Source: Bacteroidales bacterium
GTDB taxonomy: Bacteria > Bacteroidota > Bacteroidia > Bacteroidales > JAAUTT01
DNA length: 64,000 nucleotides
NCBI GenBank assembly: GCA_025361285.1
Contig: JANYAP010000090.1
Coordinates: 8,176 to 72,175 of the forward strand
Direction of reading: 5' to 3'
Position numbers and translations under genes: made by a program. Positions 2,677-35,120 of the stretch are shown here, piece after piece (within the stretch, counting starts at the first letter, position 1; each line of letters starts with the position of its first letter). The notes below the pieces were generated by a model, which was given only the letters and a program-made list of their open reading frames with translations, was not told the DNA's origin and ran no database searches.

Positions 2677-3849
2677 ATGATAAAAGCATTTCAATTTGCT
2701 CAAACACCTAAAATTATTTTGGGGAACGGTAAAATAGCCGAATTGCCTGGAATTACAAAAAGTTTTGGAGGCGAGGTGCTGCTTGTAACAGGCGCAAACT
2801 CGTTTTATTTTTCTAAACACGGCGAATATTTATTGAATACCTTCGAAATGACAGGCGTACGTTGCCATCACATAATTATTGCCCGCGAACCTTCGCCCGA
2901 AATGATTGACCATGCAGCAATTCGATACCGTGATACGAACATTCAACTGGTTATTGCCATTGGTGGCGGTAGCGCTATCGATGCAGGAAAGGCTATTTCG
3001 GCAATGCTTAACAAAACCGAGTTAGTTACCGAGTTTTTGGAAGGGGTAGGGTCGAAGGATCATCCTGGAACAAAAGTGCCTTTTATAGCCGTTCCAACTA
3101 CCTCAGGTACAGGTAGCGAAGCAACTAAGAATGCCGTTATTTCGCGAATTGGCAGGAATGGCTTTAAACGATCGCTGCGCCACGATAATTTCGTTCCCGA
3201 TTATGCAATTGTCGACCCCGAATTAACTTATAACTGCCCGCCAAACATAACTGCTGCTTGTGGCATGGATTGCTTTACACAGCTTGTTGAAGCCTACTTG
3301 TCCGATAAATCATCGGTGCTTTCCGATGCATTGGCACTCGACGGCATCCGCACCCTAACAAACTCGTTACCACGCGCTTGGAAATGGGGTCAAGATATTG
3401 AAGCACGCACAGGCATGTCGTATGCAGCTTTGCAATCGGGTATTTGCCTCGCAAATGCGGGGTTAGGAGTTGTTCACGGGTTTGCCTCGTCGGTAGGAGC
3501 ATTGTACAACGTACCTCATGGTAATATTTGCGCTACATTAATGGCAACCGCTAACACAATAACCGTTAGGAAGCTACGCGAAGAAACGCCAAAGCATATT
3601 GCACTTATAAAATACGCCGAACTCGGAAAAATTACTTCCTCACAAGCAGGCAATTGCGACGAATATTATGTAGATGCGTTTCTCGATAAACTACACGAAT
3701 GGACTGATACAATGAACATTGCCCGTTTAAGTAGTTTTGGCGTTACCACCGACGATATCGATAAAATAGTTTCGGCTACCGATTGCAAAAATAACCCTAT
3801 AAAACTCAATAACAGCGAATTAAAGGAAATATTATTGCAAAGAATTTAG
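2677..3849 (+). CDS. Iron-containing (group III) alcohol dehydrogenase
   Basis: 390 aa. 'AIGGGSAIDAGKA' and 'PTTSGTGSE' are blocks typical of Fe-ADH. Confidence 0.85.
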   Translation: MIKAFQFAQTPKIILGNGKIAELPGITKSFGGEVLLVTGANSFYFSKHGEYLLNTFEMTGVRCHHIIIAREPSPEMIDHAAIRYRDTNIQLVIAIGGGSAIDAGKAISAMLNKTELVTEFLEGVGSKDHPGTKVPFIAVPTTSGTGSEATKNAVISRIGRNGFKRSLRHDNFVPDYAIVDPELTYNCPPNITAACGMDCFTQLVEAYLSDKSSVLSDALALDGIRTLTNSLPRAWKWGQDIEARTGMSYAALQSGICLANAGLGVVHGFASSVGALYNVPHGNICATLMATANTITVRKLREETPKHIALIKYAELGKITSSQAGNCDEYYVDAFLDKLHEWTDTMNIARLSSFGVTTDDIDKIVSATDCKNNPIKLNNSELKEILLQRI

Positions 3850-3870
3850 GCTGGAGGCTGGAGGCTGTAG
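3848..3870. repeat. Octamer array aggctggaggctggaggctgtag overlapping the adh stop codon
   Basis: Period-8 direct repeat. An inverted copy lies at 4054-4067. Confidence 0.85.
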
Positions 3871-3964
3871 ATCTTCTGACTTTGCGTAAACTATATTGTC
3901 CTAATTATTACCATTATTTAAGTATTGATTTTATCTTTAAGTCTGCTCGGTAAATACGATTTAG

Positions 3965-3992
3965 TGTCATTCCGACCTACGTCGGAATGACA
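3965..3992. repeat. Perfect 12-bp-stem palindromic hairpin (tgtcattccgac-ctac-gtcggaatgaca)
   Basis: Read directly from the sequence. It belongs to the same hairpin family as those inside 11065-11365. Confidence 0.9.
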
Positions 3993-4050
3993 GCATACTT
4001 TTAAGGATCGCCAATCTGGAGGGTTGTTCCATTCTTGGAATTGTACGACT

Positions 4051-4072
4051 CTTCCAGCCTCCAGCCTAAAAG
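4051..4072. repeat. Inverted copy of the ggctggag array, directly 3' of the minus-strand PPIase stop
   Basis: 'ccagcctccagcct' (4054-4067) is the exact reverse complement of 3848-3861. Confidence 0.85.
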
Positions 4073-4510
4073 CTACTCTTCGGTAACCACAATCTTTTCA
4101 ATTACATCGCCTTCGCGGATACTGTCGATAACATCCAAGCCATCGTAAACCTTGCCAAAGCAAGTGTGTACCCTATCGAGGTGGCTAGTATTTGAGCGGC
4201 TGTGGCACACAAAAAATTGCGATCCGCCAGTATCTTTACCTGCATGAGCCATCGATAGCACACCTCTATCGTGAAATTGATTATCGCCACCAGTTTCGCA
4301 CTTAATTTTGTACCCTGGGCCGCCAACGCCAGTACCTTTAGGGCATCCACCTTGTATAACAAAGTTTGGTATAACCCTGTGGAACGTTAAACCATTATAA
4401 AACCCTTCCTTCGAAAGCTTTACAAAATTAGCAACCGTGTTTGGAGCATCTTTATCGAAGAAATTAACCTTCATAACTCCCTTTTCTGTGTGAATTTCTG
4501 CTTTTGCCAT
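4073..4510 (-). CDS. Cyclophilin-type peptidyl-prolyl cis-trans isomerase
   Basis: 145 aa. '[13 protein letters not shown]' and 'GSQFFV' are cyclophilin signatures. Confidence 0.9.
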
Positions 4511-11017: not shown

Positions 11018-11064
11018 AAGAATTAAAAAATGAAAATAATTGAAGGTCGAATCACTGTAGTGGT

Positions 11065-11365
11065 GTTGTCATCCCGACGCAGGTAGGAGCATAGCGGTGT
11101 TGCTGTCATCCCGACGTAGGTCGGGATCCCTATCGGACGAACAACAGTAATGCAATAACGTACCCTTTATGGATTCCTACCTACGTCGGAATGACAGAAG
11201 GGGCGCGTTGTCATCCCGACGCAGGTAGGAGCATAGCGGTGTTGCTGTCATCCCGACGCAGGTAGGGATCCCTATCGGACGAACAACAGTAATGCAATAA
11301 CGTACCCTTATTGGATTCCGACCTACGTCGGAATGACAGTAGGGGGGGTGTTGTCATCTCGACAT
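11065..11365. repeat. Tandem repeat, 2.1 copies of a ~142-bp unit made of ccgac-NNNN-gtcgg hairpin motifs
   Basis: The units start at 11065, 11207 and 11350 (the last is partial). Each carries 'tgtcatcccgacg..' twice and the inverted 'cgtcggaatgacag'. The two full copies are near-identical. Confidence 0.9.
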
Positions 11366-22500: not shown

Positions 22501-23778
22501 CTAAATCTTCCTATTCAAGTCAAAATCTTCCAAATAATCGGCAATTTTTCTTAGAAATCCGCCGCCCAAAGCCCCGTCAATAACCCTGTGATCGTAGGTT
22601 AACGAAAGGAACATTTTGTGCCGTATAGCAATAATATCGCCTGTGGGTGTTTCAATTACGGCAGGTTTTTTTTCGATGTTTCCGGTGGCCAAAATTGCTA
22701 CTTGAGGCTGATTAATTATTGGTGTGCCGAACGAGTTTTTAAAACTTCCAAAATTCGATACAGTAAACGTTCCACCCTGAATGTCGTCGGGGGTAAGTTT
22801 ATTGGTTCGTGCGGCTTCTACTAACCTATGTAGCTCTTTGGTAATGCCCAGAAGACTTAAATTATCGGCATTTTTTATAACAGGCACAATAAGGTTGCCC
22901 GATGGCAGCGAAACGGCTACGCCAAGATTAATATTTTTTCGGATAATTACCTTATACCCATCAACTGAAGCGTTTACGTGAGTGTATTCCTTTAGAGCGT
23001 TAACAATAGCTTCCAGAAAAACAGGCATGTAGGTTATGCTTATTTTTTCGCGTACTTTGAAGTCGTCCTTAACTTTATTTCGCCAAAATACCAAATTGGT
23101 AACATCGGCTTCCACAAAGTTGGTAACGTGTGGTGCTGTATGTTTCGATGCAACCATGTGATCGGCAATTAGCCTTCGCATTCTATCCATTTCAATTATT
23201 TCGTCGTCGGAACCAACGGAAATGGCAACTTTTGGCTTATCGGCAATTACAGCTTCCGAAATTGGCGTATCGTGCTTTATATTAGGCGATTTAGATTTAT
23301 CGAGTACGTAATTTAATATATCGTCCTTACGTACTCTATTGTTCTCACCTGTGCCCCGTATCGTTTCAATCTCATCGCTCGAAATGTTTTCCTTTTTAGC
23401 AATTGTTCGAACTAATGGGGAATAAAAACGTTGACTTTTTGTATTGGTTTTTGGTGCCGAAATAACAGGTGCAACCGTTGGTTTTGGTTCGGACTTTTCG
23501 GAGGGTTTAGCCGAATCGGTATCGCTCACATTTTCAATATCTAACGAAATTATTGCTATAACTTTACCAACAGGAACAACATCGCCAACTTTAAAAAATA
23601 TTTTGGTTATTTTGCCAGCAACGGGCGATGGTATTTCGGAATCGACCTTATCGGTAGCAATTTCCAATAATACTTCGTCTTCGTCGATAATATCGTTTTC
23701 TTTCTTAAACCATTGTGTTATAGTTGCTTCGGTTACACTTTCGCCTAATTTAGGCATTACAACTTCAAACTGAGACAT
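22501..23778 (-). CDS. Dihydrolipoamide acyltransferase (E2) of the 2-oxoacid dehydrogenase complex
   Basis: 425 aa. Lipoyl domain 'EIATDKVDSEIPSP', an E3-binding region, and the catalytic 'DHRVIDGA' motif. Confidence 0.92.
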   Translation of the reverse strand: MSQFEVVMPKLGESVTEATITQWFKKENDIIDEDEVLLEIATDKVDSEIPSPVAGKITKIFFKVGDVVPVGKVIAIISLDIENVSDTDSAKPSEKSEPKPTVAPVISAPKTNTKSQRFYSPLVRTIAKKENISSDEIETIRGTGENNRVRKDDILNYVLDKSKSPNIKHDTPISEAVIADKPKVAISVGSDDEIIEMDRMRRLIADHMVASKHTAPHVTNFVEADVTNLVFWRNKVKDDFKVREKISITYMPVFLEAIVNALKEYTHVNASVDGYKVIIRKNINLGVAVSLPSGNLIVPVIKNADNLSLLGITKELHRLVEAARTNKLTPDDIQGGTFTVSNFGSFKNSFGTPIINQPQVAILATGNIEKKPAVIETPTGDIIAIRHKMFLSLTYDHRVIDGALGGGFLRKIADYLEDFDLNRKI

Positions 23779-23898
23779 AAATTGTTATTTTAAAATTATG
23801 TATAATTCTTATAACTAATTTACCTCATTTTTGTTCAACCTTCGATAGCGAAAATTGATGATTTGGTTTAAAATGCAGGTTCCTCGAAATAAATAAGA

Positions 23899-23988
23899 GG
23901 CTGTAGACTGTGGGCTGTAGACTTTAGGCTGTAGGCTGTAGGAGCTTCGGTGCAACCAATAAAATTAAACCTTATATGCAAATTCGAA
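23899..23988. repeat. Left inverted-repeat arm (ggctgtag octamers plus 58-bp core)
   Basis: The reverse complement of 23931-23988 aligns to 25527-25584 with 52/58 identities by hand alignment. The outer parts are related octamer arrays. Confidence 0.85.
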
Positions 23989-24124
23989 AATAGTGGTTAT
24001 TCGGCAAAAATAGTGTAAATGAAATTGTAAGTATTGTATAAAAATGATAAACATGGTAATAGGGTCGGTATAATTGTTGCATTTTTATTCGCTTTGTTTC
24101 ATAATATTTGTTTTGTTTAAAATT

Positions 24125-24272
24125 GCTCCCAACGTTTGCGGGTATGCGCCTGTGCGGGATTGCGGAGCGACGTTCCTATCAAACGAGGCGAAAGATTGAT
24201 GCGGGTGATGACCTTCGCATACCTCTGAAACCCTTATTGGCTGTACCGCGTGTTGTGGGCTGCATTTTTTTA
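24125..24272. ncRNA. Candidate structured non-coding element (GC-rich island); family unknown
   Basis: About 55% G+C by hand count over 24131-24263, within visibly AT-rich flanks. There is no convincing ORF. 'ggtatgcg' (24141-24148) is complementary to 'cgcatacc' (24216-24223). A 7-T run lies at 24265-24271. Confidence 0.35.
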
Positions 24273-25151
24273 TTCAAATATATCAGGGAATTGGTCAATC
24301 AAGAACTGAAACTTCTCCTTTTCAGGTATTAGCTTAATAATATTTTTCATAGCATTCATATTATCAAGTTGTTTATTTATCCTATATGACAAAGCTAATG
24401 AAATTAATTGATGAGAAATTGATTCTATAATCTCTGACGGATTTGCAATTTCAGGTTCATCATCATAATAGATTACACCAGCAATTGGATTTTGGTCATT
24501 TGGTATATTTTGGTGTATCCATCTAAAATATGGAATCTTCTGTTTTTTTAGTATTATATTGTTTTGCTCAAATTTGATTATTTTCTTCAAACTACTCTTA
24601 AATGTCAAAAGCTTTTCAGAATCAAGTAAATCATTGTAATGAATTGAAACAATAGGATTTCCTAGGTCTACAAAATATCGTTTCCCATCGCCCCCGTATT
24701 TCCAGTCTTTTATATCCTCTTGCCTAGGCTTACCTACACTAATATTGAAGTAGTCAAACTTAGGAGTCAAAACAAGTTGACTAGCATTCTTATATTCACG
24801 CTCAATGAACCATAATGAAGATGTATTATGAATATCAAGTGTGAGTTTCTCAATTGAAATGTAACCAATAAAAAATGGTAGTTCTAATCTAAAAATCCAA
24901 TCAATATCTTCCTTGTGCCATTTATTTTTCTTTACTCTACCATAGACAATTGGTTCTTTCGATGACTTAACTTGTATCATGAATGGTAAAGTTGGGATTA
25001 AGTCATCATTAACAATATCTGTTATTGTGCAATAAAAGTCAACGCCAAAATCTTCCTGTCTTTGAAATTCACTTATAAATCCCAAATGAGAAAGAAAATA
25101 ATTTGCTAAATATTCAGCTCTGTCCCCCTTTCTAAAAATTTCTTTCCTCAT
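24270..25151 (-). CDS. Hypothetical protein with a PD-(D/E)xK nuclease-like (DUF4365-like) N-terminus and an uncharacterised ~200-aa C-terminal region
   Basis: 293 aa. 'GDRAEYLANYFLSHLGFISEFQRQEDFGVDFYC...FMIQVKSS' matches the remembered DUF4365 pattern (G..aE..v...l, D.GiD, QVKs). The gene is much more AT-rich than its neighbours. Confidence 0.7.
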   Translation of the reverse strand: MRKEIFRKGDRAEYLANYFLSHLGFISEFQRQEDFGVDFYCTITDIVNDDLIPTLPFMIQVKSSKEPIVYGRVKKNKWHKEDIDWIFRLELPFFIGYISIEKLTLDIHNTSSLWFIEREYKNASQLVLTPKFDYFNISVGKPRQEDIKDWKYGGDGKRYFVDLGNPIVSIHYNDLLDSEKLLTFKSSLKKIIKFEQNNIILKKQKIPYFRWIHQNIPNDQNPIAGVIYYDDEPEIANPSEIIESISHQLISLALSYRINKQLDNMNAMKNIIKLIPEKEKFQFLIDQFPDIFE

Positions 25152-25408
25152 GTTGGCTCAAGGTCGTTTTTTTAAGTTGCCCACAACAATGCAATATATA
25201 CAATATTTCGTTAAACTTTTTACGGAGTTTTGGTGCCTTGGTGGCTATTACATAATTTTTTGCCACCAAAACACAAAAACACAAAATTGCACTAAATAAA
25301 ATTGTTAAAATACTCAAATAAAAAGTTTACCGAAGCCTCGCCTTCATTTATTGTATTATATTGATGTAAAAATGAGCCCTATTCCGTAAAAGTGCGAATA
25401 AATTAGGC

Positions 25409-25519
25409 TTGTTACAAAGAAAACTCGTTAAAGTGTCAAAAACATGGTTGTATGTCAATATTTATAAGAATTTTCAAATATTTTTATTGTTACTTTTTTT
25501 TCACTTTCGCTCATTAGAG
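25409..25519 (+). repeat. Family-D dispersed repeat, truncated copy
   Basis: It aligns to the reverse complement of 51265-51376 at roughly 85-90% identity by hand alignment ('gttac.aagaaaactcgttaaa.tgtcaaaaa.at.gttgtatgtcaatattta...tttcaaatattttt.ttgttactttttt'). Confidence 0.8.
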
Positions 25520-25526
25520 CAATAAT

Positions 25527-25617
25527 TTCGAATTCACATATAAGGTTCTATTTTATTGGTTGCACCGAAGCACCTACAGCCTCCAGTCTACAGCCTCCAG
25601 TCTCCAGTCTAAAGCCT
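25527..25617. repeat. Right inverted-repeat arm (58-bp core plus cctacagcc/ctccagtc octamers), ending 12 nt before the dcp stop
   Basis: See 23899-23988. Confidence 0.85.
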
Positions 25618-34874: not shown

Positions 34875-35046
34875 AAAACTACGTTTGGCTAGCTAGCAAT
34901 GGCTATAAATCATAACGGTTTCATCGCAGATTGCATGTTTTCGGCTCACGCCTCACAAGCGCAGAATATTAAAAGGAAACATCTTCGTTCAACCATCCAA
35001 AGCTTTCTGCCCAATTATTGGGGTCGTCAAATTATTACAAACCAAG

Positions 35047-35120
35047 TGATTCCGACGCGATTCGAACGCGTGACCCACAGCTTAGAAGGCTGTTGCTCTA
35101 TCCAACTGAGCTACGGAACC
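35047..35120 (-). tRNA. tRNA-Arg (anticodon TCT)
   Basis: Reverse complement is GGTTCCGTAGCTCAGTTGGATAGAGCAACAGCCTTCTAAGCTGTGGGTCACGCGTTCGAATCGCGTCGGAATCA. It has a 7-bp acceptor stem, D arm GCTC/GAGC, anticodon loop CT-TCT-AA, and T loop TTCGAAT. No CCA is encoded. Confidence 0.93.

Follow-up and report, generated by a model that had tools for sequence, protein, structure and literature searches.

Introduction

Integrons are the textbook system of gene capture and shuffling, and they have been reported to be rare in Bacteroidetes. The attC site of an integron cassette is an imperfect inverted repeat of 57–141 nucleotides (nt), with outer R″ and R′ boxes (RYYYAAC...GTTRRRY) and inner paired boxes. 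Crossover takes place in the G|TT core, and R″ is complementary to the first bases of the same cassette. The recombinogenic fold is that of the bottom strand, a choice set by extrahelical bases, an unpaired spacer and the loop. Here, these features are compared with a G+C-rich island at 24131–24263 of a 64,000-nt stretch of a Bacteroidales bacterium genome (contig JANYAP010000090.1; the whole stretch is referred to as the window), which lies directly 3′ of an open reading frame (ORF) of 293 amino acids (aa). Judged from sequence comparisons, the island is likely (probability roughly 0.85) to be the attC-like site of a single integron-type cassette (24134–25187, minus strand) that carries a DUF4365-like ORF, and not a small RNA (sRNA), one of the forms that had been considered in the original prediction for this locus.

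Single attC sites lacking an integron-integrase (SALINs) have been described, together with insertions at secondary 'attG' sites of consensus 5′-GWT-3′ (bioRxiv 10.1101/2022.09.11.507474). Group IIC-attC introns are reported to target the bottom strand of attC sites, in the direction opposite to that in which the cassettes are transcribed (PMC3001079), and a survey of tyrosine recombinases found the IntI insertion to be 'not fully conserved' within the integron-like subgroup (PMC8138268). No description of Xer-linked cassette arrays in Bacteroidota was found in the literature searched, which is absence of evidence only. The family to which the island belongs, a repeat of ~125 nt present in over 100 Bacteroidota genomes, is large and apparently undescribed, and its sites in Bacteroidota adjoin Xer-like recombinases, not those of classical integrons.

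Results

The island and its putative cassette in the window

Exactly 74 of the 133 bases at 24131–24263 are G or C (55.6%, against a window mean of 37.3%), in agreement with the earlier hand count, and a G+C content as high as this is reached by 0.028% of all 133-nt stretches of the window, in two regions, 24131–24263 and 11152–11332. The island is flanked by the start region of a 2-oxoacid dehydrogenase E2 gene (22501–23778, minus strand) and by the stop codon of the 293-aa ORF (24270–25151, minus strand). Six-frame translation across the island gave no credible coding frame; the plus-strand ORF at 24108–24332 is implausible as a gene, as had been suspected, and the other five frames across 24091–24300 carry stops. 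The parts of the element and its cassette, with reference to alignments A1, A2 and A3 of the family, are as follows.

24124..24261, plus strand: attC-like recombination site on the folding ('bottom') strand, antisense to the cassette ORF, from left box TGCTCCCAAC to right box GTTGTGGGCT
24131..24134, plus strand: invariant AAC|G core, which on the cassette strand is the G|TT of the R′ box; putative crossover and downstream cassette end
24138..24158, plus strand: 5′ arm of the main stem, GCGGGTATGCGCCTGTGCGGG, differing from the subtype consensus by two additional bases and three substitutions (by eye, from the subtype-B rows of A2)
24159..24230, plus strand: apical domain with the family motifs GATTGCGG, TATCAA, TGATGCGGGTGA and ACCTCTGAAACCC, in columns (nearly) invariant in alignments A1 and A2
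24231..24249, plus strand: 3′ arm of the main stem, CCCTTATTGGCTGTACCGC, from the stem alignment and reading of the sequence
24252..24260, plus strand: right box GTTGTGGGC, which reads as R″ GCCCACAAC on the cassette strand, 9 nt from the ORF stop codon
24265..24271, plus strand: run of seven T, overlapping the ORF stop codon (24270–24272) and matching the T-rich right flank of most members (A2 consensus)
24270..25151, minus strand: cassette cargo ORF, 293 aa, with a weak N-terminal match to DUF4365 (PD-(D/E)xK nuclease-like); ~28–30% G+C
25168..25187, plus strand: 5′ half-site of the cassette, TTTTTTAAGTTGCCCACAAC, which terminates in AAC| and is not followed by an attC body; upstream cassette end
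24134..25187, minus strand: whole putative cassette, 1,054 bp, comprising a 36-nt leader, the ORF, 9 nt and the attC-like site; from the two boundary calls

A covariance model (R1), built from 43 diverse family members (alignment A3), was run on the window with filters off and gave 24124–24261 on the plus strand as its sole significant match (100.1 bits, E 4e-22), the window copy being one of the 43 training rows. The element was also matched by nhmmer at E 1.9e-27 with a profile that likewise contained this copy, and it can be aligned with 89 relatives (A2). A crude scan of the window for AAC...GTT hairpins gave matches at background level, and the covariance model was used instead.

The two ends of the cassette are marked by corresponding boxes. 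The right box GTTGTGGGC is the exact reverse complement (9 of 9 bases) of GCCCACAAC at 25179–25187, 34 nt upstream of the ORF start codon, and a weight matrix of the left flank plus AAC, made from the 89 other members, ranks 25168–25187 first among 127,962 window positions, with the element's own left box second. The end boxes and this ranking therefore place the cassette at 24134–25187 on the minus strand. The outer boxes of the window copy read TCCCAAC and GTTGTGG, and obey the RYYY/RRRY flanks loosely. Directly after the AAC at 25187 comes AT-rich sequence (AATGCAATATATAC...) without an attC body. On the cassette strand the putative target reads G|TT; the predicted empty junction of the cassette is AAAATTGCTCCCAAC|AATGCAATATATAC, and the predicted circular junction is ...CGCAAACG|TTGTGGGCAACTT.... 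A second, degenerate attC at 25188–25520 was considered and rejected for its wrong box spacing and an R1 score of 8.8 bits only.

Look-ups of exact proteins returned short contigs of the same strain only, and contigs of GCA_043724375.1 overlap the window. In the Logan assemblies, contigs of this strain (L003 and L004, window 24213–25272) end at 24213, exactly 30 nt from a G at 24243 that is private to this copy. A break at this point is the expectation for a k=31 graph that branches where the attC core ceases to be unique, and other copies of the same core are probably present in those Logan samples.

Relatives of the element and the pPP2 array

A permissive blastn search against plasmids found relatives in unannotated intergenic DNA, at five places on Persicobacter psychrovividus pPP2 and one each on three Chondrinema litorale plasmids. 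The pPP2 matches sit between small hypothetical genes that all run in one direction over more than 64 kb, and these copies can be aligned with the window element from '...ACAACG' through to 'TGTTG...', with invariant internal motifs in common. An exact-pattern scan with the conserved core, made on one genome per species, returned 114 DNA stretches, nearly all of them from Bacteroidota; these comprise Bacteroidales/Marinilabiliales-type metagenome-assembled genomes (MAGs), Prolixibacteraceae, Flavobacteriales, Saprospiraceae, Cytophagales and one Chlorobiota MAG. No match to the element was found in a phage genome collection or among IMG/VR viral contigs.

All copies are bounded by AAC|G...TGTT and are of near-equal length, and they lie antisense to and directly 3′ of small ORFs, often in same-strand arrays. 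Two to five copies each are carried by 29 loci (nhmmer), and several MAG loci hold 5–9 R1 copies per 8 kb. On pPP2, R1 finds 81 copies on one strand over 64.6 kb and none in 40 kb of adjacent non-array DNA. Many ORF-plus-repeat units are duplicated within this array, and in the 12 pairs examined the identity starts and stops exactly at AACG(G/T)T.

A hairpin scan of pPP2 gave 41 elements of uniform length. In 21 of 37 consecutive pairs, the 7 nt that follow GTT in one element are antiparallel complements (at least 6 of 7 bases) of those that precede AAC in the next, whilst agreement with the left box of the same element is at random level. This is the pattern of a crossover that splits the R′ box, as each cassette then starts with bases that pair with the R″ of its own attC, and on this analysis such complementarity between neighbouring elements is the diagnostic anatomy of integron cassettes. 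The Persicobacter elements share a common structure whilst differing widely in sequence, and their AAC and GTT are 120–125 nt apart; a single sub-family, to which the window copy belongs, has retained its apical sequence across many genera.

Stem structure and folding strand

The sequence motifs to which the original prediction drew attention are present. GGTATGCG at 24141–24148 and CGCATACC at 24216–24223 lie where they had been placed, TGCGGG occurs three times, the run of seven T stands at 24265–24271, and 'gtaccgcg' was also found, at 24243–24250, one base away from its reported position. The 8-bp complement formed by the first two, which had been taken as the main helix, shows no covariation: 51.6% of its cells pair in relatives, the same as in shuffled controls. 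A perfect inverted repeat of at least 8 bp arises in 12 of 300 shuffles, which makes the complement only mildly unusual by itself. The pairing that had been offered as an alternative (GCGGGTA with TACCGC) is the one that corresponds to the conserved stem.

This main stem has 18 pairs and is strongly supported by the covariation test on collected homologues, a check which had been suggested at the outset. In 90 sequences 91.8% of cells pair, and in the 43 diverse sequences 94.7%, with compensatory changes at 15 of the 18 pairs in both sets. The covariation score for the 43-sequence set is 0.58 against 0.137 in shuffles, none of 500 of which reach it, and slid controls pair in at most 51% of cells. 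The terminal AAC and GTT pair in 100% (A3) and 96% (A2) of family members. In the apical domain, a loose all-against-all screen for covariation gave too much noise for further helices to be defined.

The strand that folds is indicated by two stem positions at which G·T wobbles are conserved (40/43 and 42/43 sequences). On the opposite strand they would be C·A, which biases the fold towards the strand that lies antisense to the cassette genes. For 47 of 51 elements, this strand also has the greater stability when DNA energy parameters are used. Reading the A2 and A3 rows by eye shows an asymmetric spacer that is unpaired; the canonical extrahelical G and T on the R″/L″ arm are not evident, and one subtype has a T bulge on the opposite, R′-side arm.

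Introns also lie on the folding strand. Beside family elements, Rfam models matched group II intron domains at locus L122 (7743–7998), L117 (2031–2336), L028 (1521–1863) and L092 (1102–1197); the matches are to the generic D1–D4 models only. In several loci, including these four, the right box is replaced directly after CACATTGT. Group IIC-attC introns offer the parallel, with introns beside the sites on the folding strand.

Recombinases at the heads of arrays

At the upstream end of the pPP2 array is a gene for a 379-aa tyrosine recombinase, co-directional with the cassettes. The gene spans the origin of the circular record (NZ_AP025294.1; L008 14093–14593 joined to L009 1–640) and is therefore missing from the PLSDB gene table, so that the array looks integrase-less in that annotation. 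The enzyme scores 226 bits with NCBIfam NF040815 'site-specific tyrosine recombinase/integron integrase', above the cutoff of 220, and 198 bits with TIGR02249 'integron integrase', short of the cutoff of 265; in the latter case the two matched stretches lie either side of the IntI insertion. Its closest solved structures are of archaeal XerA, ahead of VchIntIA. When aligned with IntI1, using a query verified as 100% identical to the annotated intI1, all 47 gap positions fall within residues ~197–265, the IntI-specific domain. Five other array-linked genes are ~42–45 aa shorter than IntI1 in tblastn alignments, and the Persicobacter enzymes have an extra N-terminal region of ~100 aa.

XerA-like genes followed by co-directional R1-positive arrays were found in P. 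psychrovividus, Persicobacter sp. JZB09, two Fulvitalea axinellae replicons (where the genes are annotated xerA) and MAG loci L046 and L088. There is no R1 match upstream of the recombinase gene in the JZB09 and Fulvitalea loci, and at L088 one element lies just upstream. No recombinase with the IntI-specific domain was found among the array-linked genes compared.

The window sequence AAC|AATGCAATATATAC resembles the candidate attI junctions between XerA-like genes and first cassettes, and also the junction of a lone cassette at locus L126. At L207, L046, L088, L126 and window positions 25185–25205, AAC| is followed by A/T-rich sequence with TATA(C/T) 6–9 nt from the crossover, and the 5′ arm of attC has TAT(G/A) at a similar distance.

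Cargo of the cassette

The 293-aa ORF matches Pfam DUF4365 at E 0.0021, below the curated cutoff, and has five homologues among 5.8 billion proteins. A DUF4365 match is present in three of the six members of this cargo family (best 1.3e-5), and E13, D34, D38, Q60 and K62 are invariant, a residue pattern that is compatible with a PD-(D/E)xK nuclease fold. The homologue at L126 (40% identical) adjoins a type I restriction-modification system and is then followed by an R1-positive element of the same polarity. The low G+C content of this nuclease-like ORF would be explained by its being horizontally acquired cargo.

Discussion

Comparison with known sites

When set beside integron attC sites (the 59-base elements, such as the aadA1 attC, and the Vibrio superintegron repeats known as VCR), the family shares an imperfect palindrome directly 3′ of a promoterless ORF, outer boxes AAC and GTT with the crossover in that core, and a distal R′ part that travels with the next cassette, which leaves R″ matching the first bases of the cassette to which it belongs. 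In both cases the fold favours the strand antisense to the cassette genes, which is also the strand of the group II intron target, the length is within 57–141 nt, and arrays reach tens of cassettes. Three of the features by which an attC site may be recognised were found, namely the inverted repeat with its boxes, the position 3′ of an ORF with R″ complementarity, and variable sequence with kept structure and length.

The family differs from classical attC sites in having a conserved apical module, with motifs in these ~70 nt kept across Bacteroidota orders where the classical loop is variable, and in a nearly fixed length of ~120–125 nt. Its strand bias comes from the two G·T wobbles, plus the R′-side T bulge in one subtype, with extrahelical bases not evident at the canonical positions, and RYYYAAC/GTTRRRY is loosely obeyed beyond AAC/GTT. 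The neighbouring recombinases lack the IntI-specific domain. They resemble the inverted-group integron integrases and XerA/XerD in being simple tyrosine recombinases, but differ from integron integrases in that ~47 residues are missing from the pPP2 enzyme where IntI1 has its extra domain.

A direct comparison was obtained by running R1 on the R46 class 1 integron, where aadA1 and the two blaOXA-2 copies each have a match overlapping their 3′ end, and another match lies beside orfD. These cassette-end matches are four of R1's five best, weak (5–12.5 bits) and without exception on the strand antisense to the genes of the cassettes; their alignments run through AACG... and ...TTGTT, and they were placed by gene annotation, the attC sites themselves being unannotated. 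The core architecture is therefore common to the family and to classical attC.

The cassette in the window also resembles a SALIN, as it has one cassette with one attC-associated coding sequence and one attC-type site, with no other att site and no integrase nearby in the window, and its putative G|TT target fits 5′-GWT-3′. A difference is that the cited work concerns IntI1-type integrases and canonical attC sites, whereas the insertion in the window and the enzyme behind it are putative. On this analysis the element is functionally the attC site of a lone cassette, and hence an element of a known kind.

Proposed mechanism and evidence against it

Recombination at these sites would begin when the folding strand becomes single-stranded, during replication, conjugation or repair, and forms an imperfect hairpin that brings the ...AAC and GTT... 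boxes together. A tyrosine recombinase would then cut the AAC|G core and exchange strands with a partner, which may be an attI-like site, another attC or a secondary GTT site, and the cassette would be excised as a circle or inserted. The likely enzyme would be a XerA/XerD-like recombinase, of the kind encoded upstream of arrays, and co-directional with them, in several genomes, and not a classical IntI.

As the cassette in the window stands alone, with no second site or recombinase and with a degraded stem, it is probably a stranded cassette that was inserted, SALIN-like, at a secondary G|TT site. It is possibly no longer mobile, and the window copy may be a fossil.

Several observations weigh against reading the island as an attC-like site. 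Sequence conservation in the apical ~70 nt is far higher than in the variable loop of classical attC, which could be a sign of an added function, such as protein binding or a role at the RNA level. With DNA parameters, the folding energy of the window copy is −15.3 kcal/mol, whereas the family averages −18.6; the stem of this copy is weakened, and the consensus hairpin is absent from its minimum-energy DNA fold. A second site is absent from the 64-kb window (R1 with filters off; next best match E 0.69), repeat searches returned a single copy, and neither an IntI nor a Xer-like recombinase was found there; with no recombinase or second site in the window, activity of this site cannot be shown. 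An allele with an empty site was not found by way of metagenome relatives of the E2 gene, the closest of which are at most 70% identical and not syntenic; those at 70% identity have no Dcp neighbour, no element and no inverted repeat. It is from gene neighbourhood alone that we infer that XerA-like enzymes recombine these sites. Lastly, a cargo homologue that is 73% identical to the window ORF (locus L124) is without such an element.

At L124 (913–3222), this homologue ends a row of small same-strand genes (DUF6364/PIN, PemK-type toxin) with no R1-type sites. Such a row may represent an array that has decayed, or else an island of another kind.

Alternative explanations

The original prediction favoured a structured non-coding RNA, which would be either a plus-strand sRNA ended by the T run or an element of the 3′ untranslated region (3′-UTR) of the ORF, with the stem and apical motifs acting as RNA. 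The covarying stem suits this, as do wobbles that are G·U-compatible on the plus strand, the highly conserved apical motifs, the T-rich tract that follows the element on that strand and a weak terminator-like site at 24246–24258. A single-stranded DNA hairpin would, however, give covariation equally. Rfam offered no relevant family at gathering thresholds or at E up to 10; within 23750–24400 the best match was an implausible eukaryotic small Cajal body-specific RNA (17.7 against 65 bits), all matches there being far below the gathering score, whilst over the whole window only a tRNA at 35047–35120 passes and the related loci match group II intron models only. Folding of both strands, the other computation that had been recommended, gave energies like those of dinucleotide shuffles (z −0.02 and −0.68), so that thermodynamics alone is uninformative. 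No promoter-like site was found upstream on the plus strand in a scan for sigma-70-type promoters. An sRNA leaves unexplained why the ends are crossover points and why same-strand arrays reach ~80 copies per replicon, and a fold antisense to every cassette gene rules out a 3′-UTR role. The view that the island is non-coding and structured, is conserved elsewhere, is linked to the minus-strand gene beside it and falls outside known RNA families has been upheld, but its identification as a structured RNA is highly unlikely to be correct.

A boundary of a Xer/dif-type module, like those of the pdif modules on Acinetobacter plasmids, would instead be a double-stranded binding site for XerC/D-like proteins. 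It would account for neighbouring recombinases that are Xer-like and without the IntI insertion, but not for a covarying hairpin of ~125 nt with strand-specific wobbles in place of a 28-bp duplex. Each gene has a single site, all of them in direct orientation and with complementary end boxes that are split, which is the pattern of integrons, and four of R1's five best matches on R46 fall at the 3′ ends of cassette genes. Only a very small probability is accordingly left to a pdif-like boundary.

The element is a multi-copy palindromic intergenic repeat, and the window holds other palindromic repeat families, which is what would be seen if it were a miniature transposable element or a repeat of the repetitive extragenic palindromic (REP) type that gathers between genes and is unrelated to integron-style recombination. 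The array copies, however, share one orientation, each directly 3′ of an ORF, and their number per array tracks the number of ORFs. Duplications take in whole ORF-plus-site units and break at AACG(G/T)T, and the end boxes are complementary between neighbours and not within one element, as circular cassette intermediates predict. Neither target-site duplications nor a transposase were found, and such an origin is most improbable.

The decayed gene fragment that had also been suggested, or a relic of a tRNA or transfer-messenger RNA (tmRNA), has a negligible chance of being correct, since the G+C-rich block in an AT-rich intergenic region and its one open frame (24108–24332) stand against stops in the other five frames, no tRNA or tmRNA found by ARAGORN at the locus (the only tRNA in the window being tRNA-Arg at 35046–35120), variation in the family by paired compensatory changes and 1-nt indels that is not codon-like, and ~80 copies in one array.

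Implications for integrons in Bacteroidota

With the island read as an attC-like site, the annotation of the window would change from 'candidate sRNA' to a mobile-element boundary. A broader and more tentative proposal, to which somewhat less than even odds are given, is that the family and the XerA-like recombinases at the heads of arrays form an integron-like gene-capture system found throughout Bacteroidota. Such a system would work without the IntI-specific domain, use hairpins of near-fixed length (~125 nt) with a conserved apical module, choose its strand by G·T wobbles and build arrays of at least 80 cassettes on Cytophagales megaplasmids, and it would have been overlooked because integron finders require the IntI signature. 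If this were true, cassette capture would be common in marine and sediment Bacteroidota and would be run by Xer-like enzymes without a domain thought to be essential for attC recognition, which would bear on the evolution of integron integrases from Xer recombinases and on the minimal features of folded-DNA sites. The cassette cargo, which includes toxin-antitoxin, nuclease-like and defence-like genes, would also be open to mining by a simple covariance model.

Other repeats and genes in the window

The cassette region is bracketed by a long inverted repeat, given here as context only.

23898..23995, no strand assigned: left arm of the inverted repeat, 98 nt, 84% complementary to 25520–25617
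25520..25617, no strand assigned: right arm of the inverted repeat, starting 12 nt after the stop of the M3 peptidase gene

The outer halves of this repeat are tandem 7-nt GGCTG(T/G)AG units, and GCTTCGGTGCAACCAATAAAAT...CCTTATATG is the sequence of the inner halves. These heptads form another inverted pair (GGCTGGAGGCTGGAGGCTGTAG / CTTCCAGCCTCCAGCCT) at 3841–3871 and 4049–4076, just after the ends of two convergent genes, which suggests that the heptad pairs are a genome-wide family of intergenic repeats. The 98-nt arms were also considered as transposon ends, which is less likely than a separate genome-wide repeat, given that similar heptads bracket another intergenic region.

The window's other equally G+C-rich stretch (11050–11360) is an intergenic tandem of ~145-nt units made from palindromes such as TGTCATCCCGACGCAGGTAGG and GTCATTCCGACCTACGTCGGAATGAC, and a palindrome of this tandem recurs near 3966–3991. 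Among the genes of the window, the fused E1 dehydrogenase points to a Bacteroidales-like host within the Bacteroidota, as it is 71% identical to its Parabacteroides distasonis counterpart, with the next best match at ~35%.

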